Below are positions 37,606 to 61,198 of a DNA stretch of 64,000 nucleotides, piece by piece. Every line of letters starts with the position of its first letter. The first letter of the stretch is position 1. Source of the stretch: Pseudovirgaria hyperparasitica (lineage: Eukaryota); the NCBI GenBank assembly GCA_010093815.1, contig ML996566.1; one strand, written 5' to 3'. Under the pieces are notes generated by a model. That model saw only the letters and a program-made list of their open reading frames with translations. It was not told where the DNA came from and searched no databases. Both the position numbers and the translations under genes were made by a program.

Positions 37606-40600
37606 TCAAACGGTAACAACAGCCTCTCTAAGTCTATCCGCTTCATCTACAATCCGCAATAAAGTTTCCTTCGACAGCTCTATCCACCTTTCAACTTGCT
37701 CCCACTGCGGTACACGATTGTCAATCAAGAAGTCGAATTCCATCAGTCCCTGTCGCACACAGGATGTGACTTCAAAGACCGCTAACCCTTTTACTTTCTT
37801 TGCGCTTTCTGGATCATTTCCTGGCGGTACGCGCACTCTCTTGAAGAGGCTGTCTGTCCGCTCTAATTGCTGGAAACTGCCCAGGAAATTGAAGTTCATC
37901 TCCATGCCTTCGTAATTGAAGTAGGATTTACCGAGCGGGTGTAGATAACGCGAAGCAAAGTACGCCCAACCTTTTTGAGGTACATTTTGGATGCGCTGCG
38001 TCGTGTGTGTGATCATGCCACGGAGGTCAGCAGCGCTATGACACTGCAGCTGGATCGGATACATTGTGGTGAACCAGCCAACTGTCTGCGAAAGGTCGCT
38101 CGATACATCAAGAGGTTCGCGTCCATGCCCCTCCGTATAAACAGAGGGTAGTGTGCGATCGGGGAAGACGATACCAAAAGCATGCATAAGTGCTGCCATC
38201 ATTAGGTCCATAGGCTTGGAGTCGAAGATGTCGTTGACCCACTCCAGAAGCGCAGATGTGGCATCGGCTTGCAGGACAAATTTACGGTGTGTATATGATG
38301 ACAGGCCTACTTCTGCAGCAGTCAAGTTCCAGTAATCGAATCGTTGCGCTTCTAGCGTATAGTTCAGTGTCTTGCTGGGCTCGAGCATCTGTGCACCTTT
38401 GTGTTGGCGGCCGACCCACTCCTGGAAGCCAAGAGAGTGGACAGGAGTTGTATCCTTGCCCGAGAGGATATCTTCAAGGTCCTGGAAGATAACACGGAAT
38501 GATACAAGATCACTGACTAGATGGTTGATGGCGAGAAACAGATGTTGCCTGCCAGAGTCTTGGATATGCACCGCTGAAGTCAACGGGCCGATCTCGATGT
38601 CCACGGCATCCCGACATTTGGCAAATATACCAGGAAGACCATCCTCGGGACAATCCGAGACGGAAGTCAACTTGAACGAAGAATCAGTTTCGTTGGTAAT
38701 CCTCTGTGTCCATACTCCTGAGACTGTATGCTTCTGGAATCGTGCTCTGAGCATCGAATGGCGCGAAACAACCTTTGCCAGCGCTTGTTGTAGTGTTTCC
38801 GTGGAGAAATCCCTGCTTAGCTCTAGAAAGAAACAGATATCGAAGCAAATGTTTCCTTCTGGATGTTCATCCACAAACCACTGCTGGATTGGTGATAATG
38901 GGAAGGCAATCTCAGTCTTCTCTTCCATGTTCTCTATCTTACTTATCAGACGTGCTTTCGACTGACACGTCGCTGCCAATTTCGCTATCGTCCGTTGTGT
39001 TTGGATATCTCCTACAGCGACAGAAAGCCCCTGTGAGCGAGCAGCAGCCGCGACCTGCATTGCTGTAATAGAATCTCCGCCCATGCGGAAGAAGTCTGTA
39101 TCTACGTCCAAGGCCTCAGAATTGTTCAACACAGTCTTCCAGATTGATTCTAGTATGACCTCCGTGGCTGTACTTGCGTATCTACTGCTTCTGGATCTTT
39201 CAGATTCCAAAAGATCGCTGGCGGTCAGTTTACTCGCGATTTCACGGAGTCGTTTCCGGTCGAATTTGCCAGTGGTTGTCATTGGTATGGTATGCAAAGG
39301 GATAAACGCCGATGGAATCATATATGCAGGCACTTTTTCTGATAATCGATCCTCGATACCTTTCGCGAGGACTCTAACGGCTTCCACGTGGTCCTTAGGC
39401 AGAAGTGTGCAGTTTTTGTTGCGCCGATTAATGAAAGAAACTAGCGTTGAGTTGGTACTTCCTTTGAGCGTGACGACTTCAGAGATGACGGTGATATTGC
39501 AGTCCAGAGGCTGAGGGCTGTCTTCCGTCTGGTATCCACTGTCGCTACTGCCGCTGCTACCAGTGTAAGACTGCTCGTCTTCATTGGAGCTTGGTTCAAG
39601 TACTGTTTCTTTCGTGATTATAATGGCTTTCTTCAACGCGGCAGTAACATGTGCATCAACCTCCCCGAGTTCGACTCTTTGGCCGCGGACCTTTACTTGG
39701 CTATCTTTCCGAGCCACGTACAAGATGGATCCATCAGATTCGTATTTGACCAGATCGCCAGTCTTGTATAGCCTTCCGCGCCTACCTGAATGACCGGGGG
39801 CTCCACGAGCGAGCCACTCTGGGTCATCAATGAAAGCCTCCTTGGTCTTTTCGTCGTTGTTGTAGTAGCCGCGTCCTGTCAGAGGTCCTTCCAGCCATAA
39901 TTCTCCCACGGTACCTATAGGACAGAGTTGCTCCCCGCTGACAATCCAGGTATTTGTAGCCATGCCTCGACCAATCGTGTACTGTTGATCTTTAATCTCA
40001 CGCAGAGAAGCTGAAGTAGCCAGAACAGTACACTCGCTTGGTCCATACACAAGCCATATCTCGCACGATTGCCCAAATTTTGGGAGATCTTGAGCCCTAA
40101 ACTTTTCTCCTCCGACAAGAAGTGTCTGGAGGGTCGGAAGTAACTCAGGTGTGAAGGTCTGCACCAATGCAGGCGTGAAAAACCCGAATGTCACTCCAAA
40201 TCGAGCCATGGATGACACGGGGTCATCTCGGCGCTCAGTCTCATTGGGGACGCAAAGACAACATCCAGAGAACATTGTGAGAAGCAGGTTTGACCAGGCG
40301 AAGTCGAAGCTGTAGGAAGCGAAATCATAGATGCGTGAGGAACTGGAGATTCCGAATGTTTGAATATGGCAGTCGATGGCCGTAACGAAATTGCGGTGTG
40401 TAAGCGGCACTCCTTTGGGCTTGCCTGTGCTTCCAGATGTGAAAACCACACACAAGTCATCTGTAGAGTTCCCCGCAGGTGTCTCGAAACTTCCTACCGG
40501 ACAGCTTTTGATCGCATCGTGACTGACTACAACTGCAGGAAAGTCACCAACTCTTCTGCTCAGTTGCTGATTCTTGTCAGAAGTCAAAGTGACGATAATG

Positions 40601-43600
40601 TTAAGCTGGTCAGTGATACTACTGAGTCGTTCTCGTGGCTGTGTAACATCTAGTCCAACACCAATACCCCCAGCTTTGACGACAGCAACCATAGCAACAG
40701 ACATCCACATGGACTTCTCGAACAATAGGGGCACTGTGATACCGGAGCGGACTCCGTATTCCAGGAGCTTGATCGCTACTTGAGTTGACCAATGATCAAG
40801 TTCCGTATAGGTCATCGAGCCATCCCACGCCTCCACAGCAATGGCATGCGGGTAACGAGCAACAGTCGCGGCGATTCGTTCCGGAATCCTATCATCAAGA
40901 GCTGGCGGCAATTCCTCATTCCATTGCCAGATCTGGCTCAAGTCCTGATCCGTAACTGTCCTGATGGCAGAGAGAGCAGTGTGTCTGTACTCCGTGGTAC
41001 AGACTTGGCGTAGGACCAGCTCGAATCGCCCAAACAGGCGTCGGACGGCCTGCTCATTCAAGACAGCGGGGTCGAAGGCGGCAAGAATCTGCAGACTATT
41101 TCTGGCGAGGACGAAGTCAACCATCAGGGCAAACGTGCCAAAGCCTTCTGTACTTGTGAACTGCTCTTCATCGCTTGTGTTTTCTTCCTCGATCTTCTCG
41201 AATATATCACTACTAATGTCTAGATCTGTACCGGGCTGTACCACGATCAGAGACTGAAAGTCGCAGGCTTGCATGGCTTCATGATTGGTTTGCCGAATGC
41301 TTTGGAGTCCTGTCTGTTCGAAAGGAACCATGCAAGCTGACTGATCTTGAATCTGTTTCAGAAGAGTCTCAACGCTCGCATCCATCTGTAGGGATACTCT
41401 CACGGGAACAGTTGCGATGGTCGGTCCGACCATAGATTCCACACCCGGTACTGCCGCTTGTCGACCAGAAACAACCGCGCCAAATACTGCTTGGGAGGAG
41501 TCGCTGTCTTTGGCAGCGACTAGAGCCCAGGCTGCACGAATGACGGTTGACAGTGTGAACTCCGCAGGCACAGGTAGCATGAAGTCTGTGTTGCGACGAT
41601 ATTGCATTCTGGAGTGCGGATGATAGTTTGGTGAAGGTAATTGAGGAAACTGTTGAATATCCAGACCCCCAAACTGATGAGCCCAATACTCATGTTGGGA
41701 CTCCTTGTCGATGTTCTGGATATATCTCACGAACCCAGAAAAGGGGTAACGGGCAAGGTGAAGGCTCCCATCCTGGTTGTATGCAGTCTCAACAGCCTGT
41801 ATGATCATAGGGAGGCACCAACCATCATATACGGCGTGATGAAGCCACAGCACAAAAGTTTTGGAGCCAGTGGTGGAGTCTGCGCGTATCTCAGAGGCGT
41901 GGAGAGGACTGCCTTGCCGAACGAAACCAGACTGTAGCTCGTTTGTTTCAAAAATCCGCTCCTCTTTCAACACAACTTGTACAGTACCCTCACTGTCAAG
42001 TGTAAGAATTCTTGTCCTCAGAATGGGATTTGATAGGACTGTAGCCTCCCAGGCTTTCTTGAAGCGAGATACGTCCACGCCAGGCCGGAGCTTATAATGA
42101 AAGTCTGCGATATAGTCACCTTTGCGGCGCTCAGTGAGCGCCAGCAAGCCTTTTTGTAGAGGAGTGCAAGGGATAATATCTTCAATTTGGTCCTCTGCGG
42201 TGTCACAAAGACGCGCAGCTTCAAGTCTGAGGCCAGCAGCATTTGTAATGTCTTGCAGTAATGAGAAAGGCTGTATGGTGAGCTCGACTGACTCGGTAGT
42301 CATCACGAGCACCTGAGCCAAGTCGCATAGGCGTGGTTTCTGGAAGATAACTGGCACATTCAATGTATACCCGCGCTCACGAGCCATGCTAACAAGCCGC
42401 ATAGCATCAATTGAATCGCCGCCAATGTAGAAAAAATGGTCCGCTGCACTGATCTGCGAGACTTCTAATCCAAGAACTTCAGACCAAAGTGCTGCCAATT
42501 CAGTCTCTGTGCTCGACTGTGGTGCCACGTAGTGACATGTTTCGAATGGTTCTATCACTTGCTCCAGAGTCATCTGAGCCAAAGAATCCCGCAACTTACG
42601 GCGATCTGTCTTGCCCGTTGTCGCGGTTGTAAGGCTGCACATGGGTACATATGCCGCTGGAATCATATAGGCTGGAACTCGACCAACAATCTTTTGGTCT
42701 ATGCCCTTCAGTAGCTGATAAATGACTTGATTGTGTTCGTCTTCCGTCCAGGTATTGTCATCATCCCTAAGCAAAGTGACGAAGGAGATGAGGGAAGGCC
42801 GTGTGCTTCCAAGAAGAACGATCGCTTCTGATGTAACGTGAATCTGTGTAATAGCAGCAGACCCCCTGTCTAAGAGAGAACAATCCTCACTCGTCAGCTC
42901 TTCGGCTGCATTCGAGGTACAGATCTCGAGGGCAGTCTCCATCAAGATATTTCGAACATTCACGCTGACGTCGTCAAGTTCGACACGTTGGCCTCGAATC
43001 TTCACCTGGGAATCGATTCGGCCGCAATATATGAGTCCTCCTTTATTATTAGGGTTGTATCGTACCAGATCGCCTGTCCTGTACAGCCTCCCACTTCTTC
43101 CTGGATGGGATGCACTTCCTCTCAATAGCCATTCTGGATCCGTCACAAAAGCAGATGTTGTCTTTTCGGCATTGTTGAGATAGCCACGACCGACAAGAGG
43201 GCCTTCTAGCCAAAGCTCGCCGATTGCACCTACAGGGCAGAGTTCCCCACGATTCACGACCCATGTACATGTCTCGAGAGCATGACCAATATCTAACGGA
43301 TCATTCCTCTTTGGATCGATTCGAGCAACAGTTGTGGTAATCGTGCACTCAGAAGGTCCATACGTCACCAGGAGAGTAGCGCTGTCCGTCCACTCTAAGA
43401 ACTCTTCTGCAAGTACCGCCTCGCCACTCAAGTTTATCACTTTCAAGGATGGCACCGCAGAAGGATGAAAGAGCTTGCTGACTGTCGGCGTCAACTCAAC
43501 CCAAGTAGCATCATATCTCGCAATAGCTACTGCAGGATCATTTCTTTCATCTTCTGATGGAATGCAGAGTGTAGCACCTGCGGTGAAAGCGTTCAGTACG

Positions 43601-46600
43601 TTACTCCAGGATACGTCGAATGCGTATGATGCGAAGTCCAAGATACGAGCATCCTCTGTAATGCAAAGGGCCTTATGCCCATCGCGGATCGCTGTACTAA
43701 AATTACGATGAGTAATAGTAATACCTTTTGGTGTGCCAGTTGTGCCCGAGGTGAAAACAACATATAAGGCGTTGTCGGGTTGGACTCTCGTTTCTGATCC
43801 GAGGGAGCCAGGAGGAACAGGTAACGCCGCGACATGCTCGGCGATGATGACTTGTCCTCGAGGGAAGATTTCTTCTCCGACATTTGATCTTCGCTTACTC
43901 GAAAGGAGTACCTTTGGATCGACTTGTCGTACAATTCCTCGCAATCTTTCGAGTGGCTGATTGACATCTAGCGCCACGGAAGCCCCGCCAGCTTTCATCA
44001 CTGCAAGCATAGCTACAGGAGTCCAGTAGCTCTTCTCGAACAAGAGTGGGACGATGCTCTCTGGATCTATGAGGTGTATAAGATGGGCCGCTAGCTGTGT
44101 CGATAATGCATCGAGTTCCGTATATGTCAATTGACCGTCCCAGGCACAGACTGCCACATGGTCTGGTCGATTTCTCACAGACTGTGCAATCAATTGGTGG
44201 ACACATTTATCGACCGGGAGAGGAACTTGTCCATTCCATTTCCATATTGTGTCAAGATCGGCAGATGATGTTGCGATAACAGAAGACAGCGGCACAGAAA
44301 TGTGCTCTCCACTCTTCAGCTGTTTCAGAACGGACTCAAAGCGGGCGAATATGCGATCCACCTCAGTCGGTCGGACCACTTGCGGATCTACCGCGATTTG
44401 TATCTCGAAAGAGTTCGATGCTTGGAGGAAGCAGTCGATCGTAATTGCGTAGCTTCCGAAGCCGTTCGCGTTGCTTGACACTGGCCCATCAGTTGGGCTT
44501 TTTGAAACTTTGAAGATCTCTGTGCCACTAGTTGTATTTTCTGCCGGATTGATTGTCAGAAGAGACTGAAATCTACAGGCCTCTTCTGCATCATCACTGG
44601 CCTTTCGAATCCGTTGCAGTCCGGTCTGCTCGTATGGTACAAGCTGAACCATTTGTTCTTGTACCTGGCTGAGATAATGCTTCACGGTCTGTTCGCGTTC
44701 TAATTTGATTCTCACAGGAACCGTGGCGAGAGTTGGACCTATGATATCCTCAATACCTACAATCTCAGTAGCTTGTCGACCCGAACAAATAGCACCAAAT
44801 ACAGCTTCATTTGATGCACTATCACTGGCGACGAGAAAGGCCCACGTCGCACGGAGGAATGTTGCCATTGTAAAGTGAGATTTCGTGGTACTGTCAGAAA
44901 GATTTATGCACTGTCGGTTTATCTCAGTTGCTTGAGGATAATAGTCTGTAGATGGGAGCCTTGGATATGTCTGAGCATCTAATCCGTCAAACTGAGCTTT
45001 CCAGAAACTGTCTTGTCCCTCGATGCTGGTAATGTGCTTCACAAACCTGCCAAAAGGAGCAATGGCAGGAAATGATTTACCTTCATAGGTCTCGACAAGG
45101 GCATCAAAAATCTTTGATACAGACCAACCATCATAGAGAGCGTGATGAATCTGCCAAACGAACGTTCCGTCGTTCTCACCATTAGTCAAAACAGTAGCTT
45201 TGGATAACGGGCGTCCAAGAATCTCGGTACTTAAACCAGGATAATTTTCAGGAGTCTTTTCCAGGAACTCTAGGGCTTCCCCACTGGACAGTATGACCTG
45301 CGACATCCCTTCTCCGGGTAGGTTGACAATATAAGTTCTGAGTATTGGTATATGGGCCACAACTTTATTCCAGGCATCTCCAAGGCGCGAAAGATCCACA
45401 TGGCTTCTCAGCTCATATGAGAATGTGGCGACATAGTCTCCCTCCCTGCGCGCAGTCAAAGCTAAGAGGCCCTCTTGCAACGGTGTACATGGAAGGATAT
45501 CTTCAATATCTGCTGCCCTTACGTTGCAAAGGGATGCGGCCTTGATCACAACCTCTTCGAGACAGTTGCTGGAGTTTAGAAGAGAAAACGGCTCCGGGTC
45601 TTTCGACACTGGTAATGGTGGCTCTTTGTCGCGAGCAACAGCAGCAAGCTGCGAAAGTTGCGGTGTTCGGAAAATCTGCGCGACTGTGACTTTAATGCCT
45701 TGACGTTGAGCAGCACTGACTACTCGCATAGCGTCTATGCTATTTCCACCTATCTGGAAGAAGTCGTCATCGATACTGATCTGAGTCTTGTCTCTTCCTA
45801 GGACTTCTGCCCACAAGGCTGCCAGTTGGATTTCCTTGCTCGTTACAGGTTGTCGCAATTCCCGTGACGATAGCTTCTCAGCCGTGATTTCATCCAAAGT
45901 GAGACTGCTCGCCAACTGTTGAAGTTTCTTCTTGTCCGCTTTGCCGGTTGCCGTGAGTGCGATCTCATGGAGTGGGATACATGCTGTAGGGATCATGTAT
46001 ACTGGTACCCGTTGGCGGAGCTGACTCTCCAGCCTGCGCACCAGAATTTTCACAGCAGCATCATGCTCATAAGTTGTCCAAGAGGTACCGACTCCTTGCT
46101 TCAGGTTGATGAACGCAACAAGGGAGACCTGAGAGCTTCCTTTCAGCATTACAGCTTCTGCCATGACATTGATTTGTGTCGTGGTCTTGATATGTGATTC
46201 GTCTTGATCCAACTCTTGCTGGAGCACAGCTTTGATATGATGTTCTACTTCGCCAAGTTCAATTCGTTGTCCCCGAATCTTGGTTTGTTGATCTCTGCGT
46301 CCGATGAATACCAGACCACCGTTATCATTATACCGGACTAGATCTCCAGTTCTGTATAGCCGACCTCGTCGACCAATACGATTTGGGCCACCCTTTAGCA
46401 ACCACGGAGGGTCCTCTACAAAAACAGCATTGGTCTTCTCCGGATTGTTAAGATAGCCTCGACCTACGAATGGACCTTCTAGCCATAGTTCGCCAACGGT
46501 ACCGACAGGACACAGCGCATCCCCGCGAGCATTGACAATCCATGCATTGGTACCAAAATTATGACCAATACCCTCGCTCTGATGAGATGATTGGTCAATG

Positions 46601-49600
46601 GGAAGACAAGTAGTACAAATCGTCACCTCACTAGGACCGTAGGTAACGAGGACCTGTGCGTCTGCAAACCAGTGACGGAAGTCTTCGAAGCAAATGAACT
46701 CTCCACCCATGTTTAGAACTCGCAGCGAGGGTACAGAGGATGGTTCGAGAAGTTTGGCTACAGTTGGTGTCAAGTCAACATAGGTAGCACTGAACTTGGC
46801 TATAGCCAGTCCAATATCGCTGCGTCGATCGTCCTCACTAGGAATGCACAGTGTTGCGCCAGAACTGAATGCATTAAGGAAGTTTGACCACGAGACATCG
46901 AATGCATATGACGCGAAATCAAATATGCGGTGATCTTCAGTGAACTTCAGAGTGTCCTTCATATAGCATTCTTGGGCAGCCGTTGCGAAGTTTCCATGTG
47001 TGATAACAACGCCTTTTGGAATGCCAGTAGTGCCAGAGGTGAATATAATGTAAAGAGCATTCTTGGATTGAATGCTTGGCCATTCCATACTCGAACCCAT
47101 AGTCTGTGGGGGTTGTTGAAGAGTATTGTTTTCGACAATGATGACTGGTCCAGCGGATAGTTTCGATGCAAGAGTCCTATTCGATGCGGAGCAAACAAGA
47201 ACTTTCATGTTACTGACTTGGTTGATGATTGAATGTAATCGCTCTTCAGGCTGACTGATGTCTAGAGCTACAGATGCTCCTCCAGCCTTGAGAACTGCGA
47301 GCATGGCGATGGGCGTGAACATGCTTTTCTCGAACACAAGAGGTACGACCACTTCGGGACCAACACCATAATTATGAACAAGATCAACAGCTAACTTGGT
47401 AGAAAGTGCGTCAAGTTGTGTATACGTGAGTTTTCCATCCCACGCGTCAACGGCTAGAGAATCTGGACGGCGGCTGATAGTAGAGGCAATAATATCTCTC
47501 ACATTTCCGTCAATGTATTTGGGACAAGTCTGGTTCCAGTCCCAGATTTGATTGAGGTCCTCGTCTAGAACCAGTCTGATATCCTCAATTTTAGTCGCTT
47601 GGTTTGTCTCTGAGCAGATTTGTCGTAGTATTAGCTCGAATCTCTGAGCAAGGCGCTTGATCTGCTTTTCACTAATGACGACCGGATCAAAGGTTACCTG
47701 TAGCAGCATCCCGTCATCTCTCAAGAAACAGTCGAGAGCCAGACTATGCGTTCCATAACCTCCTGAAGACGACATGCCAATCTCCATGTTATGGTCTTCG
47801 TGCATGTCAAGCAATGGTCGAACCGACTGTATCATTTTCTTGGGATGGACAATCAAAAGGGACTGGCTATCGCATGCTAACTGAGCTTCCTTACTGGCCT
47901 GGCGAATGTTCTGAAGCCCAGTCTGCTCATAAGGAATCATATGGACAGCTTGCTGCTGCACCTGGGCCAAAATTTCTGCAACGGTCAGCTCAGCACTTGT
48001 TCCAATGCGCAAAGGTACAGTATTGAGGGTAGGCCCAAGTATGTCCTCTATACCCGTGATTGCAGCTTGACGACCGGAAACCACAGCACTGAACACTGCT
48101 TCGTCAGATCCAGTATCGCTGGCTAAGAGAATTGCCCATGCTGCACGTATTGCGATGGAGCTTGTCGCAATTGTTTTTCCCCTGGGCAGTGTCAAGTCGT
48201 AGCGGTAGATATGAGAGGGGTATGGATGGTATTCAGGGGATGGGAGGCTCGGAAATTGTTGCGCGTTCAGTCCATCGAACATAGTTTCCCAAAAGAGCAT
48301 GGTCTTTGTAGGATCCAAGTTCACTGTGTGATGGACAAATGTTGCGAATGAGGGTGATTTGGGTATGCAATGTCTAGCATAAAGCTGTCCCACCCGGGCG
48401 ATGATCTTGGGTAAAGACCATCCATCGTAAACAGCATGGTGCACTTGAACTTCCAGTTTTGCGACGTGGTCAGTTTCGTTCGTGTTTATTCGCGCGAACA
48501 GCAGCGGTTGGCCTAGCATACCAATCGATTTCAAAGAATTTGCGGAATTTTCCGTAAGGTGGAGCGCGAGTGATTCATCGTTTTTAAGCACGACCTGAAC
48601 AAGTCCGATGCCGGTCGTGTTGACGATACGAGTACGGAGAATTGGCGTCGTCGCGATAGTGTCATTCCAAGCTTGCTGTAGCCGTGTCATGTCGACGTCG
48701 GAACGAACATTATAAGTGAACTTGGCAATATAGTCTCCCTCTCGACGTGCTGTGAGAGCCATGAGACCTGATTGCGACGAAGTGCAAGGAAGCACATCCT
48801 CAATACAGTCGGCTGTAACATTGCACAAAAGGGATACAGTCTCTCGAACGTCAATAGGATTCGTGGGCAACAGAGAAAAAGGAGTCACCTCCAACTCCAT
48901 GGTCGGTGGAGCTGTACTTGCAATTGTGGCAAGATCACAAACACGAGCGTGCTCAAAGACGTCCAGAGCATTGAAATACAATCCAGACTTCCTAGCTAGG
49001 CTAACAAGTCTCATTGCATCGATTGAATCGCCGCCGATCCGAAAGAAATTGTCATCTGCACTGATTGAATCAATTTCGCGCATCAAGATTACCGCCCAAA
49101 GGGCGATTAGTTGCGTCTCGACAGCAGTCTCAGGTAGGATGATGCGGCGAAGGGAGTGCTTAGACTTGTAATCAAGTTCCTGTGAAGTCTTCCCCTGGAG
49201 TGAAGCCCGAAGCTTTCGCCTATCTAACTTACCAGCTACAGACACGGCCAAGTTAGATACACTTACATACATAGAAGGGATCATGTATGTGGGCACTTTG
49301 GCTCGTAATTCGTTGTTGACATTGTCGGTCATGTCAGCGATAGCTTCTTCTTGTTGCTCTTGGGGGAGAGGGGCTGCGTCTTGGGCACTTGAGATCGAGA
49401 TAAAAGCAACAAGTACCGAGCGTTTGTTGCCATCCAGCGTAATGGAATCAGCCGTGATATGAAGGAAATTCGTGGCCATACCCCTGGAATTCATTTCCGC
49501 TAGGAAAGCATTGCGTACGTGCCACTCAACTTCGCCCAGCTCGACACGCTGGCCACGGATCTTGACTTGACTGTCATCTTTGCGTCTAATGTAGACTAGA

Positions 49601-52095
49601 CTGCCATCTGGATTGTACTTGACAAGATCGCCGGTCTTGTAAAGCTTACCGGCTCTGCCAACAGACGTGGTAGATGGACCACCTTGAAGCAGCCACCACG
49701 GGTCTTTGATAAACGATATATCAGTGCGCTCAGGATCGTGTAGGTATCCGCGACTGACGAGTGGTCCTTCTAGCCATAGCTCCCCAATTGCTCCTACAGG
49801 GCACAGCTGGTTGCCTTTGACAATCCAGGCATTACTTGCGATAGGGAAGCCTATCCCAGTTTCTCCATTCGCAAGTTGAGCACATGTAGTCGTGATGGTA
49901 GCTTCCGCAGGACCGTAGGTAATTACCATCTCAACATGATCTCGCCAATTTTCGAAGTCCTTGACCACAACTTTCTCGCCACCGAGATTGAGCTTCTTGA
50001 GACACGGGATCTTGGTTGGGTCTATCGTCCGAGCCACAGTGGGTGTGAGATGTACGTAAGAGGTACGATACTTCTGTATTGCCTGTTCCAGATCTTGACG
50101 GCGTTCGTCCTCCGATGGAACCACGAGACAAGCCCCGGTAACGAGTGTGTTGACGAAGTTCGACCAGGCCACATCAAAAGAATACGATGCAAAGTCGAGC
50201 ACTCGATCATCTTCTGCAAAAAGCTGTCGTTCTCGACCAGCCTGGACAAAAGTGCAGAGGTTGCTATGCGTTACCACAACACCTTTAGGTACGCCGGTAC
50301 TACCGGAGGTAAACTGAATGTACGCTGCGGTGGACAGATTCGTGGCAGAGAGCACAGCTGATAGAGTTGATCCTTGCTCGATGGTATCTCGATCAATGAT
50401 CATTACAGTACCTGCATGGGCAGAGTGTGCAAGTACATTGTTGTTGCTTGAAGCAAGTGCAACAACAGGTTGTGTCGTCCCCATCAGACGAGATAAACGC
50501 TCTATAGGTTGAGTAGTATCGACAGCGAGGCAGATCCCACCAGCTTTCATAACGGCAAGCATGGCCACTGGCATCCATACGGACTTTTCGAAGAGTAGCG
50601 GTACCACATTCTCAGCCGTCACACCTTGGGCGACTAGCTTCGTCGCTACTGTGTTCGATAACTCATCCAGTTGTCTATAAGTTAATTCGCCGTCCCAGGC
50701 ATGTATTGCGGTCGCGTCAGGCCGTCTTCGAGCAGTATCGGAGATCAAGTCGTGCACACATCTGTTATGGGACACAGGTACAGAGTCGTTCCATCGCCAT
50801 ATATCTACTAGATCGTCGTTGATAGCCACGTTGATGTTGCATATCATCTTTTCCTGGGATTGCGCAAGTTGATGTATTACTTGCGTGAGTTGCTGAAGAA
50901 TTCTTTTGACCTGCCATTCGGCGATGACGTTGCTGTCATACCAGGCGTCTATGTCAATGCCATCTTTTTCGAGAGAGCATTGAATCGTAAGAGCCTGGCT
51001 AGCGACTCCGTGATCAGCCTCTTGACGACGCCAGCTACCGATGGATGAGTCAAGTTTCATGGTGCTTTTTGAGGGCTGGACAATGAGTAGCGTTTGGAAT
51101 CCACTAGCAATACTGCCTTCTTCACTGACACGTGAGATACTGCGTAGACCCAGATGCTCGTAAGGTTTTGAGGTCTCGATCTTCGTTTGTGAGTATCTAA
51201 GAAGATCGTACACTCTGGTTTCGTCTGTCAACACCAGACGTGCAGGAAGTGTGGAGATTGTGCATCCCACAGTCGACTTCGGGACGAAGTCTCGCCCGGC
51301 AACGATAGTGCCGAAGCAAACATCATTCGTACCAGTATGGGTTGCAATAACTATAGCCAGCGCAGCTCGAATGAGTGCTGTTCTTGAGACACCTTCAACC
51401 TTGGGTATCGCCGGACAGAGATGACAACAAGTCGAGGTTGCCAGAGGCTTATATTCCTGAGTAGGTAATTCAGGGAAAATAACCGAGTCCAGCCCATCCA
51501 GTTCATCCTTCCAGAATTTTTGGGCATCTTCAATACTCCTTTCTTGCAAATTGGTGATAAAATTTCGGAAAGGTGGGACTTCTATAGCCGGCTTTCCATT
51601 ATATATTGAACAGACTGCTTTTGTCATGTTCTTGAAAGACCATCCGTCATAGATTGCGTGATGAATCGTCCACACAAAAGAGCGGTGGTTAGAGTGGGTG
51701 TTCACTATAAGCGAGTACCTAGCCAATGGCTCTCCAAGAGACCAAGTGAAAGACTTCGCGGCCTTAGCACATTCCTCGAAAGATTCGTAACGACTCCATT
51801 CAAACGAAGTGTCAAGGACCACCTGAATCAAGCCACTTTCCTCGGTATCGATGATTCGAGTTCGGAGAACATCTGTTAGGTTGACGTATTGCTCAACTGC
51901 TGACTGGAGAGTCGCTAGGTTGACTTCTGGGGACAAGTCTAGCACGATATGCCTAATCGGTGCTCGAGACCCCCGACTTGTTTGAGCAATGAAGCCCTCC
52001 TGCATAGCAGAGCAAGGAAAGCTGTCTTGTATAGCAGCAGGGCTACAGCCAAAAGCTTTGGCGAGCTCCTGAGCAGTTGGTGGTGATGAAGTCAT
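37606..52095 (-). CDS. Four-module nonribosomal peptide synthetase, C-A-T-C-A-T-C-A-T-C-A-T-E
   Basis: Single ORF. Four C motifs (HHAIYDG, HHAVYDG, HHALYDG, HHAVYDG), four A3 loops (FTSGSTG or FTSGTTG..PKG) and four PCP motifs (GGDSI, GGNSI, GGDSI, GGDSI). The C-terminal E domain has PLSPIQQWF, NHLVSD, EGHGRE and TVGWFT. Confidence 0.97.
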   Translation of the reverse strand: MTSSPPTAQELAKAFGCSPAAIQDSFPCSAMQEGFIAQTSRGSRAPIRHIVLDLSPEVNLATLQSAVEQYVNLTDVLRTRIIDTEESGLIQVVLDTSFEWSRYESFEECAKAAKSFTWSLGEPLARYSLIVNTHSNHRSFVWTIHHAIYDGWSFKNMTKAVCSIYNGKPAIEVPPFRNFITNLQERSIEDAQKFWKDELDGLDSVIFPELPTQEYKPLATSTCCHLCPAIPKVEGVSRTALIRAALAIVIATHTGTNDVCFGTIVAGRDFVPKSTVGCTISTLPARLVLTDETRVYDLLRYSQTKIETSKPYEHLGLRSISRVSEEGSIASGFQTLLIVQPSKSTMKLDSSIGSWRRQEADHGVASQALTIQCSLEKDGIDIDAWYDSNVIAEWQVKRILQQLTQVIHQLAQSQEKMICNINVAINDDLVDIWRWNDSVPVSHNRCVHDLISDTARRRPDATAIHAWDGELTYRQLDELSNTVATKLVAQGVTAENVVPLLFEKSVWMPVAMLAVMKAGGICLAVDTTQPIERLSRLMGTTQPVVALASSNNNVLAHSAHAGTVMIIDRDTIEQGSTLSAVLSATNLSTAAYIQFTSGSTGVPKGVVVTHSNLCTFVQAGRERQLFAEDDRVLDFASYSFDVAWSNFVNTLVTGACLVVPSEDERRQDLEQAIQKYRTSYVHLTPTVARTIDPTKIPCLKKLNLGGEKVVVKDFENWRDHVEMVITYGPAEATITTTCAQLANGETGIGFPIASNAWIVKGNQLCPVGAIGELWLEGPLVSRGYLHDPERTDISFIKDPWWLLQGGPSTTSVGRAGKLYKTGDLVKYNPDGSLVYIRRKDDSQVKIRGQRVELGEVEWHVRNAFLAEMNSRGMATNFLHITADSITLDGNKRSVLVAFISISSAQDAAPLPQEQQEEAIADMTDNVNNELRAKVPTYMIPSMYVSVSNLAVSVAGKLDRRKLRASLQGKTSQELDYKSKHSLRRIILPETAVETQLIALWAVILMREIDSISADDNFFRIGGDSIDAMRLVSLARKSGLYFNALDVFEHARVCDLATIASTAPPTMELEVTPFSLLPTNPIDVRETVSLLCNVTADCIEDVLPCTSSQSGLMALTARREGDYIAKFTYNVRSDVDMTRLQQAWNDTIATTPILRTRIVNTTGIGLVQVVLKNDESLALHLTENSANSLKSIGMLGQPLLFARINTNETDHVAKLEVQVHHAVYDGWSLPKIIARVGQLYARHCIPKSPSFATFVHHTVNLDPTKTMLFWETMFDGLNAQQFPSLPSPEYHPYPSHIYRYDLTLPRGKTIATSSIAIRAAWAILLASDTGSDEAVFSAVVSGRQAAITGIEDILGPTLNTVPLRIGTSAELTVAEILAQVQQQAVHMIPYEQTGLQNIRQASKEAQLACDSQSLLIVHPKKMIQSVRPLLDMHEDHNMEIGMSSSGGYGTHSLALDCFLRDDGMLLQVTFDPVVISEKQIKRLAQRFELILRQICSETNQATKIEDIRLVLDEDLNQIWDWNQTCPKYIDGNVRDIIASTISRRPDSLAVDAWDGKLTYTQLDALSTKLAVDLVHNYGVGPEVVVPLVFEKSMFTPIAMLAVLKAGGASVALDISQPEERLHSIINQVSNMKVLVCSASNRTLASKLSAGPVIIVENNTLQQPPQTMGSSMEWPSIQSKNALYIIFTSGTTGIPKGVVITHGNFATAAQECYMKDTLKFTEDHRIFDFASYAFDVSWSNFLNAFSSGATLCIPSEDDRRSDIGLAIAKFSATYVDLTPTVAKLLEPSSVPSLRVLNMGGEFICFEDFRHWFADAQVLVTYGPSEVTICTTCLPIDQSSHQSEGIGHNFGTNAWIVNARGDALCPVGTVGELWLEGPFVGRGYLNNPEKTNAVFVEDPPWLLKGGPNRIGRRGRLYRTGDLVRYNDNGGLVFIGRRDQQTKIRGQRIELGEVEHHIKAVLQQELDQDESHIKTTTQINVMAEAVMLKGSSQVSLVAFINLKQGVGTSWTTYEHDAAVKILVRRLESQLRQRVPVYMIPTACIPLHEIALTATGKADKKKLQQLASSLTLDEITAEKLSSRELRQPVTSKEIQLAALWAEVLGRDKTQISIDDDFFQIGGNSIDAMRVVSAAQRQGIKVTVAQIFRTPQLSQLAAVARDKEPPLPVSKDPEPFSLLNSSNCLEEVVIKAASLCNVRAADIEDILPCTPLQEGLLALTARREGDYVATFSYELRSHVDLSRLGDAWNKVVAHIPILRTYIVNLPGEGMSQVILSSGEALEFLEKTPENYPGLSTEILGRPLSKATVLTNGENDGTFVWQIHHALYDGWSVSKIFDALVETYEGKSFPAIAPFGRFVKHITSIEGQDSFWKAQFDGLDAQTYPRLPSTDYYPQATEINRQCINLSDSTTKSHFTMATFLRATWAFLVASDSASNEAVFGAICSGRQATEIVGIEDIIGPTLATVPVRIKLEREQTVKHYLSQVQEQMVQLVPYEQTGLQRIRKASDDAEEACRFQSLLTINPAENTTSGTEIFKVSKSPTDGPVSSNANGFGSYAITIDCFLQASNSFEIQIAVDPQVVRPTEVDRIFARFESVLKQLKSGEHISVPLSSVIATSSADLDTIWKWNGQVPLPVDKCVHQLIAQSVRNRPDHVAVCAWDGQLTYTELDALSTQLAAHLIHLIDPESIVPLLFEKSYWTPVAMLAVMKAGGASVALDVNQPLERLRGIVRQVDPKVLLSSKRRSNVGEEIFPRGQVIIAEHVAALPVPPGSLGSETRVQPDNALYVVFTSGTTGTPKGITITHRNFSTAIRDGHKALCITEDARILDFASYAFDVSWSNVLNAFTAGATLCIPSEDERNDPAVAIARYDATWVELTPTVSKLFHPSAVPSLKVINLSGEAVLAEEFLEWTDSATLLVTYGPSECTITTTVARIDPKRNDPLDIGHALETCTWVVNRGELCPVGAIGELWLEGPLVGRGYLNNAEKTTSAFVTDPEWLLRGSASHPGRSGRLYRTGDLVRYNPNNKGGLIYCGRIDSQVKIRGQRVELDDVSVNVRNILMETALEICTSNAAEELTSEDCSLLDRGSAAITQIHVTSEAIVLLGSTRPSLISFVTLLRDDDNTWTEDEHNQVIYQLLKGIDQKIVGRVPAYMIPAAYVPMCSLTTATTGKTDRRKLRDSLAQMTLEQVIEPFETCHYVAPQSSTETELAALWSEVLGLEVSQISAADHFFYIGGDSIDAMRLVSMARERGYTLNVPVIFQKPRLCDLAQVLVMTTESVELTIQPFSLLQDITNAAGLRLEAARLCDTAEDQIEDIIPCTPLQKGLLALTERRKGDYIADFHYKLRPGVDVSRFKKAWEATVLSNPILRTRILTLDSEGTVQVVLKEERIFETNELQSGFVRQGSPLHASEIRADSTTGSKTFVLWLHHAVYDGWCLPMIIQAVETAYNQDGSLHLARYPFSGFVRYIQNIDKESQHEYWAHQFGGLDIQQFPQLPSPNYHPHSRMQYRRNTDFMLPVPAEFTLSTVIRAAWALVAAKDSDSSQAVFGAVVSGRQAAVPGVESMVGPTIATVPVRVSLQMDASVETLLKQIQDQSACMVPFEQTGLQSIRQTNHEAMQACDFQSLIVVQPGTDLDISSDIFEKIEEENTSDEEQFTSTEGFGTFALMVDFVLARNSLQILAAFDPAVLNEQAVRRLFGRFELVLRQVCTTEYRHTALSAIRTVTDQDLSQIWQWNEELPPALDDRIPERIAATVARYPHAIAVEAWDGSMTYTELDHWSTQVAIKLLEYGVRSGITVPLLFEKSMWMSVAMVAVVKAGGIGVGLDVTQPRERLSSITDQLNIIVTLTSDKNQQLSRRVGDFPAVVVSHDAIKSCPVGSFETPAGNSTDDLCVVFTSGSTGKPKGVPLTHRNFVTAIDCHIQTFGISSSSRIYDFASYSFDFAWSNLLLTMFSGCCLCVPNETERRDDPVSSMARFGVTFGFFTPALVQTFTPELLPTLQTLLVGGEKFRAQDLPKFGQSCEIWLVYGPSECTVLATSASLREIKDQQYTIGRGMATNTWIVSGEQLCPIGTVGELWLEGPLTGRGYYNNDEKTKEAFIDDPEWLARGAPGHSGRRGRLYKTGDLVKYESDGSILYVARKDSQVKVRGQRVELGEVDAHVTAALKKAIIITKETVLEPSSNEDEQSYTGSSGSSDSGYQTEDSPQPLDCNITVISEVVTLKGSTNSTLVSFINRRNKNCTLLPKDHVEAVRVLAKGIEDRLSEKVPAYMIPSAFIPLHTIPMTTTGKFDRKRLREIASKLTASDLLESERSRSSRYASTATEVILESIWKTVLNNSEALDVDTDFFRMGGDSITAMQVAAAARSQGLSVAVGDIQTQRTIAKLAATCQSKARLISKIENMEEKTEIAFPLSPIQQWFVDEHPEGNICFDICFFLELSRDFSTETLQQALAKVVSRHSMLRARFQKHTVSGVWTQRITNETDSSFKLTSVSDCPEDGLPGIFAKCRDAVDIEIGPLTSAVHIQDSGRQHLFLAINHLVSDLVSFRVIFQDLEDILSGKDTTPVHSLGFQEWVGRQHKGAQMLEPSKTLNYTLEAQRFDYWNLTAAEVGLSSYTHRKFVLQADATSALLEWVNDIFDSKPMDLMMAALMHAFGIVFPDRTLPSVYTEGHGREPLDVSSDLSQTVGWFTTMYPIQLQCHSAADLRGMITHTTQRIQNVPQKGWAYFASRYLHPLGKSYFNYEGMEMNFNFLGSFQQLERTDSLFKRVRVPPGNDPESAKKVKGLAVFEVTSCVRQGLMEFDFLIDNRVPQWEQVERWIELSKETLLRIVDEADRLREAVVTV

Positions 52096-53301
52096 TGTTA
52101 GACAAGATTTTATCACCAAAAAGGAGAAGCTGAGACTTGGTCAGTGCAATGCTCATATCACATGGTCTTTGGACGTTGTGGAATGAGACTCCTACGAATA
52201 TTTGATTGATCCAGCTGAGAGCTAATCTGCTACACTCTGTCGTAATGGCGCGAAGGATCTGGGGATTGTGGAAAGAAACAGAAACAGCTATGCAATGTGA
52301 TGTTGCTGTTTGTGATCACGAGAAATCTCAAGCCTCATATAAACGGTCCACGCTGCACCTATAGAAGGACAGTGACCTAGCAACGTTACATCGGAAAATG
52401 CTCCTACCGCCATACGATAGGAAGGTTGGGGTCTATTCGTGCCATTGTAAGCAATACTTGTTGCACCGAAATTCTCATTCGTCGATGTTGGTCGGAATCC
52501 TTTCAAGCAACGTTGGAACATCCACTGCCGGCATGATGCCAAGCCAAAAGGCCATCGGAGAAGGAGAGCAGGAATGCCTGCTGCACTATAATCATGAATT
52601 AGCATAGTAGTGACCAAGCTTCAAGCAAGCACCTGCACCAGTAGGACATTGAGTTCCTGGCTCCGTGGTAAGCCACAAGTTACTCCATTCGGGAAATGGT
52701 GACCAACAGACAATACAACTATTAGTGTCCAAAGATGTGGAGCAATTTCTGAAGCTCTTGCAGGTGAGAACTAATTTGTCCAAGTAGCAAGCGTCTAGAG
52801 GACACGCGGATGAACTCTGTGAATTCCTATGGTCAGCGTTGTAGTCCCGATTTCGATACAGGCATAAGATAAAAAAATTCAAAACGGCCGAGCCGAAGTT
52901 ACAGACTCATTACAAGCAGCCACTTTGCTTCGCGCAGCTACCGGTCTTTGTGTCTTACTAGGAACTATTACTCATATTCTGAGACAGTGTCGGCTGAGAT
53001 CCAATGGTAATGCTAACTCGTTCGTTGTGCTAATGTTAATCACTATACAGGAGTTAAAGCCGAAATACCACCTGCATGACCACTGATCAGTAACCGCTTA
53101 CGTGAGTAAATGCCATGTACGGCACGGTCCATGTGCAATCCCTGCATGATGAGGTTAACGGCGTGTCCTAATGCAAGGTCAAGCGCAGAGCCGCAGCCAC
53201 ATATTCAGCCGCAAGCTTTGATATAATACAGCTCAATAATACAAAGCTAGTAATGAGTTGCAACTTTTTTCCTACTCCATTTGCTCTTGGAGGCGTAACT
53301 A

Positions 53302-54361: not shown

Positions 54362-55996
54362 TCAGTGTGTTTTGACGGTAAAAAGTAGTCCGCCACATAT
54401 CACAGACCATAGCCCTATCAAATCAAAGGGCATTCCCACCCAAAAAGTACCATGTCTCATACCCCACCCAAATGCTGCAGCCAGTATTGGAGCTCCAAGC
54501 ATCGATCCAACAATGTCTATAACGCTGATGACACTAAACAATGTTGCTAGGCGGCTGCTCGGAACAAGGGACGCTGCGAGGCTCCGCAGAAAAAGAGCAG
54601 TGCCACTACCTAGAGTACTCACCGTCATGCTAACAGCTACAAACAAAGTGTTCGTTGCCATTCCCGTTCCAGTCCAGCCTGCAGCTTGCAGGAAGATGGA
54701 GACTCGAGCAAGGTATAGATCCTTAACTTGCGTGCTCCATCTTTGTTCTCGCGTCATATACGTTGACAGGCGTGGTAATACCACAAGGAATAGCAGAATG
54801 CTACAACCAGCTCGGAGAGAAAAGAAAAGTGTTGCCTGTGAGATTGTGAAACCGAGGCGGCGGCTCAAAAATTGCACCTGCAGCTGGGAGGTTCCTGAGA
54901 TCAATAAATGCTCGGTGTACGGCAACAGAATGATCATTAAGGTCCAGTACTTGAACACGAAGTTCTTGGTCTGTTGCAGCCACGAATCTTCATAGACACT
55001 TGAGTCGTCGGTAATTTGTTCTCTGTTGGGTGTGCAAGGCTGGGTTTGAGGATATTCAGTCCCTGTTTCCATCAGACACTCGTTGCACGCCGGAGACGTG
55101 TTTATTATGTCTTGTGCCTCGTGAGGGTCATGCTCTTGATTTTTCAACGTCTCTGGAACGAACATGGCCAGAAATAGAGCGACCAGAAGAAATAAAAGAC
55201 CTGCGGAACTAGGGAGCCAAGGGCTAACTCGCATAGACCATGCGGACAGCGGTGGGATTAGTAACAATGGGAATAGAGACGCTGCTCCGAGGCGGAAGAA
55301 CGCGTTTGTCTGTTCTTCTTGCGGCGTCACATCTGATACAACCACAAATATGAGGTTGTAGAGGACCGTAGTACTTCCAGCGAAAAGACCGTTCAAAGAT
55401 GATAGTAGGGTCCAATAAATGCTTTGTTGTTGCCAGAACCAGCACACGTACTCGTACCAGACCCATCGTGCAAGAGACGAGACAAAGCCTGATATTAAGA
55501 AAGGTTTCCGTCCAAACTTATCGGCTGCCATTCCAAAGGGGAGGGCAAGAAGAAGGCTCATAAGGCTATCGAATATTTGTTGATATGAAGCCAAATTCGC
55601 CATGTCTGACTGAATGGCGTCGACTTTGCACCAGGACTCATCAACACCATTCACGGCACCTGCGGCAACCGTGTCTCTCCCATGGAGAATCTTGCTGGGG
55701 TCATACTTTTCGTAGAACCTATAGCAGAATATAGACTCCACGATACGGGTTCTGGGGGCTTCAATCAGTTGCTCGCCGCAGACTTGCAAGAAGACAATAG
55801 CGAACAGTAGAACAAGGGTTCGCCTTGGCCTATCTCGAATCTTTATATCATCGGGCTTGAACACCCCTGCCGTGCCAGACTGTTCATTGGACGATAGTAA
55901 TATGCTGGACTCTGTAGGTTCCTCGAGTTGGTGCTGTACTCTTCTTCTGGAAGATTTATGGACGCTAGTGTGCCTGACTGAGTTGATGTGCACCAT
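54362..55996 (-). CDS. MFS transporter (cluster-associated efflux pump type)
   Basis: EAPRTRIVESIFC...WCKVDAIQS, MFS motif A (GMAADKFGRK) and about 12 hydrophobic segments. The first in-frame ATG is at 55996. Confidence 0.88.
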   Translation of the reverse strand: MVHINSVRHTSVHKSSRRRVQHQLEEPTESSILLSSNEQSGTAGVFKPDDIKIRDRPRRTLVLLFAIVFLQVCGEQLIEAPRTRIVESIFCYRFYEKYDPSKILHGRDTVAAGAVNGVDESWCKVDAIQSDMANLASYQQIFDSLMSLLLALPFGMAADKFGRKPFLISGFVSSLARWVWYEYVCWFWQQQSIYWTLLSSLNGLFAGSTTVLYNLIFVVVSDVTPQEEQTNAFFRLGAASLFPLLLIPPLSAWSMRVSPWLPSSAGLLFLLVALFLAMFVPETLKNQEHDPHEAQDIINTSPACNECLMETGTEYPQTQPCTPNREQITDDSSVYEDSWLQQTKNFVFKYWTLMIILLPYTEHLLISGTSQLQVQFLSRRLGFTISQATLFFSLRAGCSILLFLVVLPRLSTYMTREQRWSTQVKDLYLARVSIFLQAAGWTGTGMATNTLFVAVSMTVSTLGSGTALFLRSLAASLVPSSRLATLFSVISVIDIVGSMLGAPILAAAFGWGMRHGTFWVGMPFDLIGLWSVICGGLLFTVKTH

Positions 55997-56623
55997 GACC
56001 TTACTTTCGACTGGTTTAAGGGCAGGAGGCGATAGGTTTTGCGACAAAAGGGTTGCCTAACACAGCATAGAATTCATGAGAGTGATAGGGTTCGATAGCA
56101 AATGCCTCCGGAGCTCCTTTGTAGTTGCACTGTGGTGACTGTGAGTCTGTGCCCTCACGAACGTTCGAGGGTTTAAGGGATTATGCAGATTAGTTAGTCC
56201 CTGTGAAGGATCACGCTATGTTATAGCCACCCTCGCACCGCGATTTACGCTAGGGACCAGCCGACAGCCTTGGCGTTCCGAACTCTATGGATCCTTCAAT
56301 AGGCCCCCAAGTAGGTGCCGGCGTTTGCACCTGCCCGGCTTACGGATTCCAACATAACAATGAACACCTGCAGACTGCGATGCTACCGTAGCAAATGCAC
56401 CACGATTTTACCACATCTTAGCTCAATATCAAACTCACGTGATATGTGAAGAAGGATGGGGGTTTGGTTTGGCACCCTAGACTCGACATGATCTCTGCGT
56501 TCTTCCTGCGGTCCCTCTGGAATGACTTGTGGGCATCCGGATGCTTATTTGTCCTCAAGAAGACGGTTTTTTAACGAGTATCCAGAAAGATCGAAACCTT
56601 CTAGTCTGAGGAATCATTTCACA

Positions 56624-59600: not shown

Positions 59601-61198
59601 CCGGATCGACGTTGGTTCAATCACGAATCGCTTTTCTCAAGATCTTCAGTTGATTGACGGAGAGCTCCCGTTGGGTCTCCAGAATCTCATTCTGAGCATT
59701 CTCCTAGCTCTTGGTCAAGCCATTCTAATCGCTGTTGCAGCGCCATATGTAGCCATATCATTTCCATTCATTATAGTCATACTTGCAGTTGTCCAGAGGT
59801 TCTATCTTCGCACCTCACGACAGCTCAGAATCATGGACTTGGAAGCCAAGAGCCCGTTGTATACACATTTCACAGAAGTGATCAAAGGCTGTTCGACGAT
59901 TCGAGCGTTTGGATGGACCTTGGAGTCTAATAAGGAGCTGCTTGAACTTCTCGAATCCTCACAAAAGCCGTTCTATCTGCTCAACATGGCTCAAAGATGG
60001 CTCACATTCGTCCTTGATGTAATTGTCGCGATTATTACCGCGCTGATTGTCGCCATCGCAGTGACCCTGCGGTCTTCAAGCGGGTCAGTCGGAGTTGCGT
60101 TGACGCAAGTCATGTCGACTAGTCTAATATTGCGTACTATCATTCTCACGTGGACTCGTGTCGAACAAAGTCTCGGGGCAGTAAGCCGCATCCAAGACTT
60201 TGCAAAGAACACGCCATCGGAGCACCTCGAGTCCGAAAACCATGAGCCTTCACAGCGATGGCCCAAGTCTGGTGAAATCGTATTCCAGAATCTTTCAGCA
60301 ATCTACACGTAGACATACCCTGCCCTGGAGATTTCTTTTTATCTCGTGCTAATGCAATTCCAGGTCCCGTCCACATCAGCCAGCTATCAAACAGATCAGA
60401 GGCACCATATCTGATGGTCTCAAAGTGGGCATTTGCGGTGGCAGTGGCAGGTAAGCCGTTGGGCATCTCAGAGTGAAATCAAGCTAACACGGAGAAAATT
60501 ACACAGCGGGAAATCCTCCTTACTACTTGCCATCCTGCACATTCTCGAATTCCAGACCGGCAGCATCGAAATAGACGGCGTGGACATTCGCTCCGTGCCA
60601 CGAGGCCGCCTCCGCCGAGCCCTCAACACCATCTCCCAAGAACCGCTCTTGCTCACAGGCACAATCCGACTAAACCTCGACCCCGAAGGCCAATGTCCCG
60701 ACTCCCAGCTCCTCGCAGCGCTCGCAAAGGTCGACCTCCTAGCATTCGTCGAGCGCGAAGGAGGTCTTGACGCCGCAATGAAGCCCGAAAGCTATAGCAG
60801 CGGCCAGCGCCAGCTCTTCTCGCTCGCATCAGCCATTCTGCGAAGAAGCAAGATTGTCCTGATTGACGAAGCAACCAGCAAGTAAGCTCATATGACCCTT
60901 CTTTCCTTCGTGTATGTTCTCTGACGGCAGTATCATTTCTAGCACGGACGCGCAGACGGACCAGCTTATGCGGAGCGTCATCGCGACGGAGTTTGCAGAT
61001 TGCACCGTTGTCACAGTCGCGCATCGTCTGGATGCTATTGCGGATTGCGACCAGGTGATTGTGATGGGTCACGGGTGTGTCCTGGAATGGGACAGCCCGG
61101 CGAGCCTCCTGGCCAGAGACTCGGAGTTTAGGAAGCTGTGGATGAAGCAAGCCAGAGCGCCAACAAGGTCGGGGACGGGCTTGAACAGCATAGAATAA
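56624..61198 (+). CDS. ABC transporter, ABCC/MRP type, 5 exons (56624-56821, 56872-60308, 60364-60450, 60507-60881, 60943-61198)
   Basis: N-terminal DSSFGP...FDFTLYF. NBD1 has GPVACGKT, LSGGQKQR and ICDD. Also NRFSQD and RTSRQLRIMDLEAKSPLY. NBD2 has GGSGSGKSS, YSSGQRQ, LIDEATS and VAHRL. Confidence 0.95.

Follow-up and report, generated by a model that had tools for sequence, protein, structure and literature searches.

A transcribed fungal peptide synthetase with an N-terminal condensation domain and a terminal epimerization-type domain

The stretch analysed here (the window, 64,000 nucleotides of contig ML996566.1 from the fungus Pseudovirgaria hyperparasitica) carries on its minus strand a gene for a nonribosomal peptide synthetase (NRPS) with the domain order C-A-T-C-A-T-C-A-T-C-A-T-E-stop, where C is condensation, A adenylation, T carrier and E epimerization. 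The gene is transcribed, complete and tetramodular. We put at roughly 60% the probability that the NRPS is a member of a small conserved fungal family that starts on C and ends on E, and that it works as a self-contained assembly line. The question of how such a line releases its peptide now attaches to a defined family, not to one gene.

The gene, its transcript and its domains

The NRPS is encoded on the minus strand by a single uninterrupted open reading frame (ORF; 37606..52119). Translation from the first ATG, at 52095, yields 4,829 amino acids (aa), and the stop codon (37606-37608) lies directly after residue 4829. The coding region and its domains are as follows, with the basis of each assignment in brackets.

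37606..52095, minus strand: NRPS coding region, 4,829 aa plus stop, intronless (ORF list; colinear RNA contigs)
50776..52053, minus strand: C1, N-terminal condensation domain, aa 15-440, HHAIYDG at 145, post-T (LCL-like) (Pfam, motifs, trees)
49201..50748, minus strand: A1, adenylation domain, aa 450-965 (Pfam, motifs)
48901..49113, minus strand: T1, carrier domain, aa 995-1065, GGDSI at 1021 (Pfam, motifs)
47521..48828, minus strand: C2, aa 1090-1525, HHAVYDG at 1219 (motifs, tree)
45901..47493, minus strand: A2, aa 1535-2065 (Pfam, motifs)
45616..45843, minus strand: T2, aa 2085-2160, GGNSI at 2116 (Pfam, motifs)
44221..45528, minus strand: C3, aa 2190-2625, HHALYDG at 2317 (motifs, tree)
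42586..44178, minus strand: A3, aa 2640-3170 (Pfam, motifs)
42286..42513, minus strand: T3, aa 3195-3270, GGDSI at 3225 (Pfam, motifs)
40921..42213, minus strand: C4, aa 3295-3725, HHAVYDG at 3419 (motifs, tree)
39241..40878, minus strand: A4, aa 3740-4285 (Pfam, motifs)
38941..39168, minus strand: T4, aa 4310-4385, GGDSI at 4339 (Pfam, motifs)
37609..38934, minus strand: terminal E-type domain, aa 4388-4829 (motifs, PDB matches, E tree)

Pfam identifies four AMP-binding, five Condensation-family and four PP-binding stretches in the protein, besides one sub-threshold AMP-binding_C match, and no thioesterase (TE), reductase (R) or additional C family. An earlier note on this DNA had proposed the same order, C-A-T four times and then E-stop, with an intact HHxxxDG motif in C1 and with no TE, R or terminal C in cis. 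Pfam and the motif positions bear this description out: C1 carries HHAIYDG, and the stop follows directly after E.

The NRPS stretch is present in four public sequencing runs, of which X1 is a DNA run and X3 and X4 come from one sample. No listed run is on record as RNA; X3 and X4 are taken as RNA solely because their contigs have gene-strand GT..AG joints that are missing in X1. These contigs, which drop rare isoforms and carry no expression-level information, are colinear with window positions 36445-52129 and contain zero joints within the NRPS coding region. Splicing to a downstream release domain had been raised in the earlier note; no joint in the X3 and X4 contigs crosses the stop codon or leads to a downstream domain. 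Nor do the same contigs reveal an upstream coding exon. The spliced leader contains an in-frame TAG 60 nt 5′ of the ATG, and none of the ATGs farther upstream leads into the ORF. The in-frame leader stop and the unspliced coding region together indicate that C1 is the first domain of the protein and a complete E domain its last.

The public protein for this gene, P0136 (Pseudovirgaria hyperparasitica, 4,573 aa), is 99.96% identical to our translation over residues 1-4561, then departs from the ORF and ends 12 residues on in another frame. Its model contains a predicted intron of about 330 nt at window 38081-38410, which halves the E domain. No joint in the X3 and X4 contigs matches this intron, and orthologues retain the full E domain where the P0136 model cuts it, so that the RNA contigs correct the public gene model. 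The exact 4,829-aa sequence has no identical entry in the protein collection searched, and homologue searches returned no match to a characterised synthetase.

The terminal domain and the family of E-ending synthetases

The sequence evidence places the last domain with the E type and not with the terminal condensation (CT) type, in agreement with the earlier note. E domains are recognised by the motif set PIQxWF, HHxxxD, EGHGRE, TVGWFT and FNYLG. The terminal domain contains PIQQWF, NHLVSDL (4524), EGHGRE (4655), TVGWFT and FNFLG (4735); its catalytic motif thus reads NHxxxDL, and not HHxxxDG. The first His of the motif is replaced by Asn and the Tyr of FNYLG by Phe, with the second His, the Asp, the Glu and the Asn retained. 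The closest solved structures are the E domains of TycA (2xhg, 1.2e-32) and GrsA (5isw, 3.2e-32), and the CT domain of TqaA is absent among the 10 PDB chains that match at E<=0.001. In a tree with C domains as the outgroup, the terminal domain nests within fungal E domains (100*; starred values are support values throughout). The TIGR01720 model scores below its cut-off (35.2 vs 74.2 bits, E 1.1e-8, domain residues 310-437); it is a bacterial model, and the score is weak evidence either way.

We rejected the idea that DL in place of DG marks a dead E domain. In most of the sampled fungal E domains the residue after HHxxxD is L (237), V (137), I (31) or M (30), together 435 internal E domains. 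Asn in place of the first His is rare among the sampled fungal E domains. From the residues that are kept, the terminal E domain probably epimerises residue 4 of the T4-bound tetrapeptide.

Orthologues were sought among proteins of 1,650-5,250 aa, a limit used because synthetases of 6,500-8,000 aa dominated a wider search, their scores summing over many E domains. Identity to the T4-E region is 59% for P0124 (Amphichorda felina, 4,900 aa), 55% for P0126 (Fusarium sp. NRRL 66182) and 57% for P0127 (a 1,931-aa fragment). P0124 is colinear with the window NRPS (52.5% identity over 4,924 aligned columns, query residues 3-4821), shares its domain order and its NHLVSDL, and ends 10 residues past E. 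P0126 is a colinear orthologue as well, and both P0126 and P0127 carry the terminal E domain of the family. In a search seeded with C1, only P0124 (52%) and P0126 (45%), beyond P0136, exceed 40% identity in that domain. The earlier note had called for homologues with the same C...E order, and P0124 and P0126 are such proteins: colinear, and members of the terminal-E clade described below.

Among the condensation-type domains, conservation is highest at the two ends of the line. Between the window NRPS and P0124, the E domain is the most conserved of all domains (61.3% identity), and C1 (54.2%) exceeds C2-C4 (46.8-49.9%). Both end domains are thus constrained at least as much as the working internal C domains, and both are probably functional. 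In addition, the pocket residues of A2, A3 and A4, taken at motif anchors with residue numbering that is not tool-derived, are nearly identical among orthologues. A truncated pseudogene was considered and rejected, because orthologues share the E end and no domain is better conserved than E.

The P0126 model runs past E, through a joint of about 25 residues, into an NmrA-like NAD(P)-binding domain (residues ~4403-4724). This join probably reflects two genes merged by the annotator; were it a true fusion, the NmrA-like domain would be a candidate release domain.

To place the E-ending layout among fungal NRPSs, we segmented 241 proteins with the window's own domains as queries (240 from searches plus the window protein, a sample biased toward T4-E likeness). 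These contain 600 E-like domains, of which 580 are followed by C and 20 come last. With 114 proteins from the C1 search added, 611 E domains divide into 398 in the order E-C-A, 104 in E-C-T, 88 in E-C(end), 20 at the end and one followed by a non-NRPS tail. Both a C start and an E end are found in 11 of the 241, counting the window protein and P0136 (one gene) separately.

A tree of 84 E domains and three outgroup C domains unites 10 terminal E domains in one clade (98% SH-aLRT) with no internal E within it. The clade comprises the window protein, P0124, P0126, P0127, P0144, P0226, P0131, P0234, P0235 and P0240; nine of the 10 proteins begin with a C-family segment, and the tenth, P0127, is a fragment. 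The E domains of six other E-ending proteins fall at various places among the internal ones; these six have no C start, and their models may be cut. The E domain of the C-starting P0228 likewise falls among the internal ones. We define the C-start/E-end family by an E domain in the 98* clade, a protein end within about 30 aa of E and a C-family first domain; the window NRPS has all three. In the literature searched, which leaves most subscription journals outside, we found no paper describing such a fungal family or how it releases its product.

All 10 members of the clade retain the second His and the Asp of the E motif, as well as H, G and R within EGHGRE. Relative to 150 internal E domains, the clade differs at NQS 4419-4421, Q4495 is replaced by R and R4710 by W in 10 of 10, and D4700, R4702 and R4770 are not kept. 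Either the loss of a downstream C domain that these positions once contacted or a change in chemistry could explain these differences. A rival reading has the terminal domain repurposed as a release catalyst, a cyclase or hydrolase with CT-like function on an E scaffold. The altered positions, otherwise conserved in internal E domains, fit such a repurposing, and an E domain, like CT, works with a single carrier domain. Against it, the catalytic E motifs are kept, the clade sits on a short branch (0.15), the changed sites could be the lost contacts, and we know of no precedent. We regard repurposing as very unlikely.

One family member has been described before. ARB_02149 (P0131, from Arthroderma/Trichophyton benhamiae) is given in the accessible sections of PMC3091305 as C-A-T-C-A-T-C-A-T-C-A-T-C, with C as its last domain. 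According to the same sections, it adjoins the ABC transporter ARB_02150 and the MFS transporter ARB_02151, its cluster also includes a feruloyl esterase and a C6 regulator, and the gene is transcribed, absent from T. verrucosum and without a known product (PMC3091305). Like the window NRPS, ARB_02149 has ABC and MFS neighbours, its last E domain falls in the terminal-E clade, and its N-terminal C is sister to C1 (99*). It differs in that our segmentation reads C-A-T-E-C-C-A-T-C-A-T-C-A-T-E, with an extra internal E-C, and in that identity in C1 is about 38%. By this segmentation, then, a family member whose last domain was published as C in 2011 ends on an E-type domain.

The N-terminal condensation domain and the origin of the family

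C1 shares about 30% identity with C2-C4, compared with about 42% among C2-C4 themselves. Among 1,576 condensation-type domains, its 100 best matches comprise 94 post-T domains, 6 N-terminal domains and none of the 559 post-E domains. A tree of 107 C domains resolves three starred groups, post-E (100*), CT-like (99*, 19 rows) and post-T (98*). C1 falls in the post-T group and not in the CT-like clade. It groups with the C1 domains of P0124 and P0126 (100*), and this clade has the N-terminal C of ARB_02149 as its sister (99*). Constraining the C1 clade to the post-E group costs 38.8 lnL units (approximately unbiased (AU) test, p 0.034), a test weakened by the fact that the post-E group was named only after the tree was seen. 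The method is able to place an N-terminal C domain in the post-E clade, since those of P0022 (14-419), P0027 (63-417) and P0208 (76-472) land there.

These placements bear directly on the proposal of the earlier note, in which an HC-toxin-type line was cut after E and permuted, leaving C1 as a post-E domain for D-configured donors. C1 does not have that affiliation: it lies in the post-T clade. A circular permutation of an A-T-E-C... line, with C1 accepting the chain from T4-E and closing it head to tail or using it in iterative oligomerisation, would account for the restriction of the terminal-E clade to proteins with a C-family start (9 of 10, the tenth a fragment), for C1 and E being the best-conserved condensation-type domains, and for the lack of another release catalyst among the scanned window ORFs. 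It is made unlikely by the post-T affiliation of C1, by the finding that the closest non-family relatives of C1 are internal post-T domains, and by the NRPS having neither the twin T nor the extra T-C repeats that iterative fungal synthetases carry.

The family most likely arose, as far as sequence relationships indicate, by loss of the last C from an ancestor of the form C-start...T-E-C(terminal), a common fungal design, and not by circular permutation; of the 611 fungal E domains, 88 precede a terminal C. The nearest non-family relatives of C1 and of E come from the same proteins (P0004, P0091, P0130 and P0241), P0091 reading C-A-T-E-C-...-A-T-E-C. Because the nearest relatives of both domains lie in the same synthetases and an N-terminal C is common in C-ending lines, loss of the terminal C is the simplest history. 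The fungal ...T-E-C synthetases P0091, P0130 and P0302 have the same domain types as the window NRPS, contain the nearest non-family relatives of C1 and E, and in some cases also start on C; they differ in keeping the terminal post-E C, the usual fungal release or cyclisation domain, whereas the window NRPS stops after E.

A starter role for C1, in which it would N-acylate residue 1 with an acyl-CoA from primary metabolism and the acyl-tetrapeptide would later be hydrolysed off, is consistent with the intact HHxxxDG, the conservation of C1 and the lack of a clustered donor module. The best solved match to C1 is a surfactin synthetase C-domain chain (8f7f, 8.1e-20), but it is hardly separated from SrfA-C (1.8e-18) and the CT domain of TqaA (5.4e-17). 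Furthermore, no acyl-CoA ligase, polyketide synthase (PKS) or fatty acid synthase (FAS) gene was found nearby in the scan of window ORFs, and a starter role leaves release unexplained. We judge this explanation improbable as an account of the whole line; N-acylation by C1 would be compatible with any of the release routes considered below.

HHxxxDG is intact in the N-terminal C domains of the window protein, P0124, P0126, P0131 and P0228, and reads HHAIGDR in P0144.

Release of the peptide and the gene neighbourhood

In the proposed mechanism, C2-C4 would assemble a tetrapeptide from module 1 to module 4, the terminal E domain would epimerise the fourth residue on T4, and the product would be exported through the adjacent MFS and ABC transporters. 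The protein has no dedicated release domain in cis, and no clustered release enzyme came up in a scan of the 22 larger window ORFs and 51 more of at least 90 aa (22.8-64 kb). Among these ORFs there is no thioesterase, alpha/beta-hydrolase, beta-lactamase-like, reductase-release, free C, A-T, PKS or acyl-ligase family member, and no PBP-like or ornithine-hydroxylase gene.

Known lines frame the possibilities. Fungal NRPSs release their products through a terminal C, an R or, rarely, a TE domain, and fungal lines ending in T and non-enzymatic release in ergot alkaloid synthesis are also noted (PMC2823734, accessible sections). The window NRPS itself resembles TycB and SrfA-B in starting on C and ending on E, and its E domain aligns over its full length with those of TycA and GrsA. 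TycB and SrfA-B are bacterial subunits that pass their chain to a clustered next subunit via docking helices. In contrast, no partner is seen near the window NRPS, and the residues before C1 resemble the second half of its own T-C linkers. Other bacterial lines end on T-E and have no cis release domain, using instead a separate SurE-type cyclase or a self-cyclising last residue. In fungi, the acetylaszonalenin synthetase AnaPS (A-T-C-A-T-E) is said to end on E and reportedly releases its product by spontaneous cyclisation; AnaPS is bimodular and primed with anthranilate, and its release chemistry is not transferable to a tetrapeptide.

Our single likeliest route, held tentatively, is that the intact and well-conserved C1 offloads or cyclises the T4-bound peptide. 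We place it first because it explains the conservation of C1 without a visible donor and because there is no other clustered catalyst; we know of no precedent for release by such a domain. A closer pairing of C1 with T4-E, in which C1 would take the epimerised tetrapeptide from T4 as donor and either close it head-to-tail or extend a new chain, is rather doubtful; if true, it would be an undescribed way to end a fungal line, common to the whole C-start/E-end family. Also held tentatively is release by a hydrolase or cyclase from an unlinked gene, or slow loss without a catalyst. It appears unlikely that the E-type domain releases the peptide, or that the chain is handed over to a second NRPS. 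If C1 is the release catalyst, the reading of fungal N-terminal C domains changes; if release occurs in trans, the NRPS is an ordinary orphan NRPS.

Handover would make the NRPS a first or middle subunit of a split line in the manner of TycB and SrfA-B, with a starter supplied by a separate A-T protein or acyl carrier protein (ACP), and the D-peptide on T4 passed to a second NRPS whose first C is of the post-E type. The C-start/E-end order is the standard layout of a bacterial middle subunit, P0022, P0027 and P0208 are fungal NRPSs with an N-terminal C in the post-E clade, and multi-NRPS fungal pathways have been reported (penilumamide, from an excerpt of the source). P0022, P0027 and P0208 would be natural acceptors for an E-ending partner and hint at split fungal assembly lines. 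On the other side, the genes of a fungal pathway usually form a cluster, the two flanks of the gene in the window (37 kb and 12 kb) contain no second NRPS, A-T protein or free C domain, and the A. benhamiae cluster, in the accessible description, has one NRPS. We therefore regard a split line as having little probability.

Several points weigh against a self-contained family line with a role for C1 in release. The search for a partner or release enzyme was confined to the 64-kb window, and either may be elsewhere in the genome. The terminal-E clade has a single evolutionary origin, which makes its link with C starts statistically weightless, and an N-terminal C often occurs in C-ending fungal NRPSs (15 of 241 and 28 of 114), so that a C start alone is not special. 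The post-T type of C1 argues against specialisation for a D-configured donor. The models of P0226, P0234, P0235 and P0240 start after the HHxxxDG position; C1 catalysis may be dispensable in these proteins, or the models may be cut or affected by intron-blind ORF calling. The trees are quick LG+G4 trees of samples picked by likeness to the window NRPS. With Asn for the first His and Phe for Tyr, full epimerase activity of the terminal domain is not assured. Finally, the ARB_02149 cluster, in the accessible sections of its source, includes the feruloyl esterase and the C6 regulator, neither of which is found in the window.

We also considered a siderophore synthetase and rejected it: the NRPS does not have the E-free siderophore layout, no hydroxylase gene lies nearby among the scanned window ORFs, and A4 is not SidN-like, matching the SidN siderophore A domain at 2.9e-33 vs 5.5e-92 for LgrA.

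The transporters recur as neighbours in both known contexts (2/2: the window NRPS and ARB_02149). A conserved, transcribed, E-ending family with only transporters as steady neighbours makes peptide release directly testable with one intronless gene. The genes next to the NRPS and the introns of its leader are listed below.

54362..56047, minus strand: MFS transporter gene beside the NRPS on its upstream side (Pfam MFS_1; MFS clusters, which type it no further than the generic family)
56851..60882, plus strand: ABC transporter gene, also upstream of the NRPS, with at least two exons, encoding ABC_tran, ABC_membrane and a second ABC_tran (family search)
34637-37142, minus strand: DUF6604 gene immediately downstream of the NRPS, containing a 53-nt intron (36392-36444)
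52130..52195, minus strand: leader intron 1 (GT..AG), joint in X3 and X4 and not in the DNA run X1, upstream of an in-frame stop
52586..52638, minus strand: leader intron 2, clean GT..AG joint in X4 only, where the X3 joint differs

Once spliced, the NRPS 5′ leader (window 52096-52988) is at least ~770 nt long and contains several upstream ATGs with short ORFs. One RNA contig covers both the NRPS and the DUF6604 gene, which does not show a single transcript. Other genes of the window (TMF1, a GCN5-like acetyltransferase, Sas10 and Mod(r)) are split by introns, and the window is fungal. A 569-aa ORF on the plus strand (31131-32840) has no Pfam family and contains a HEVAH (HExxH-like) motif and a basic C-terminal tail.

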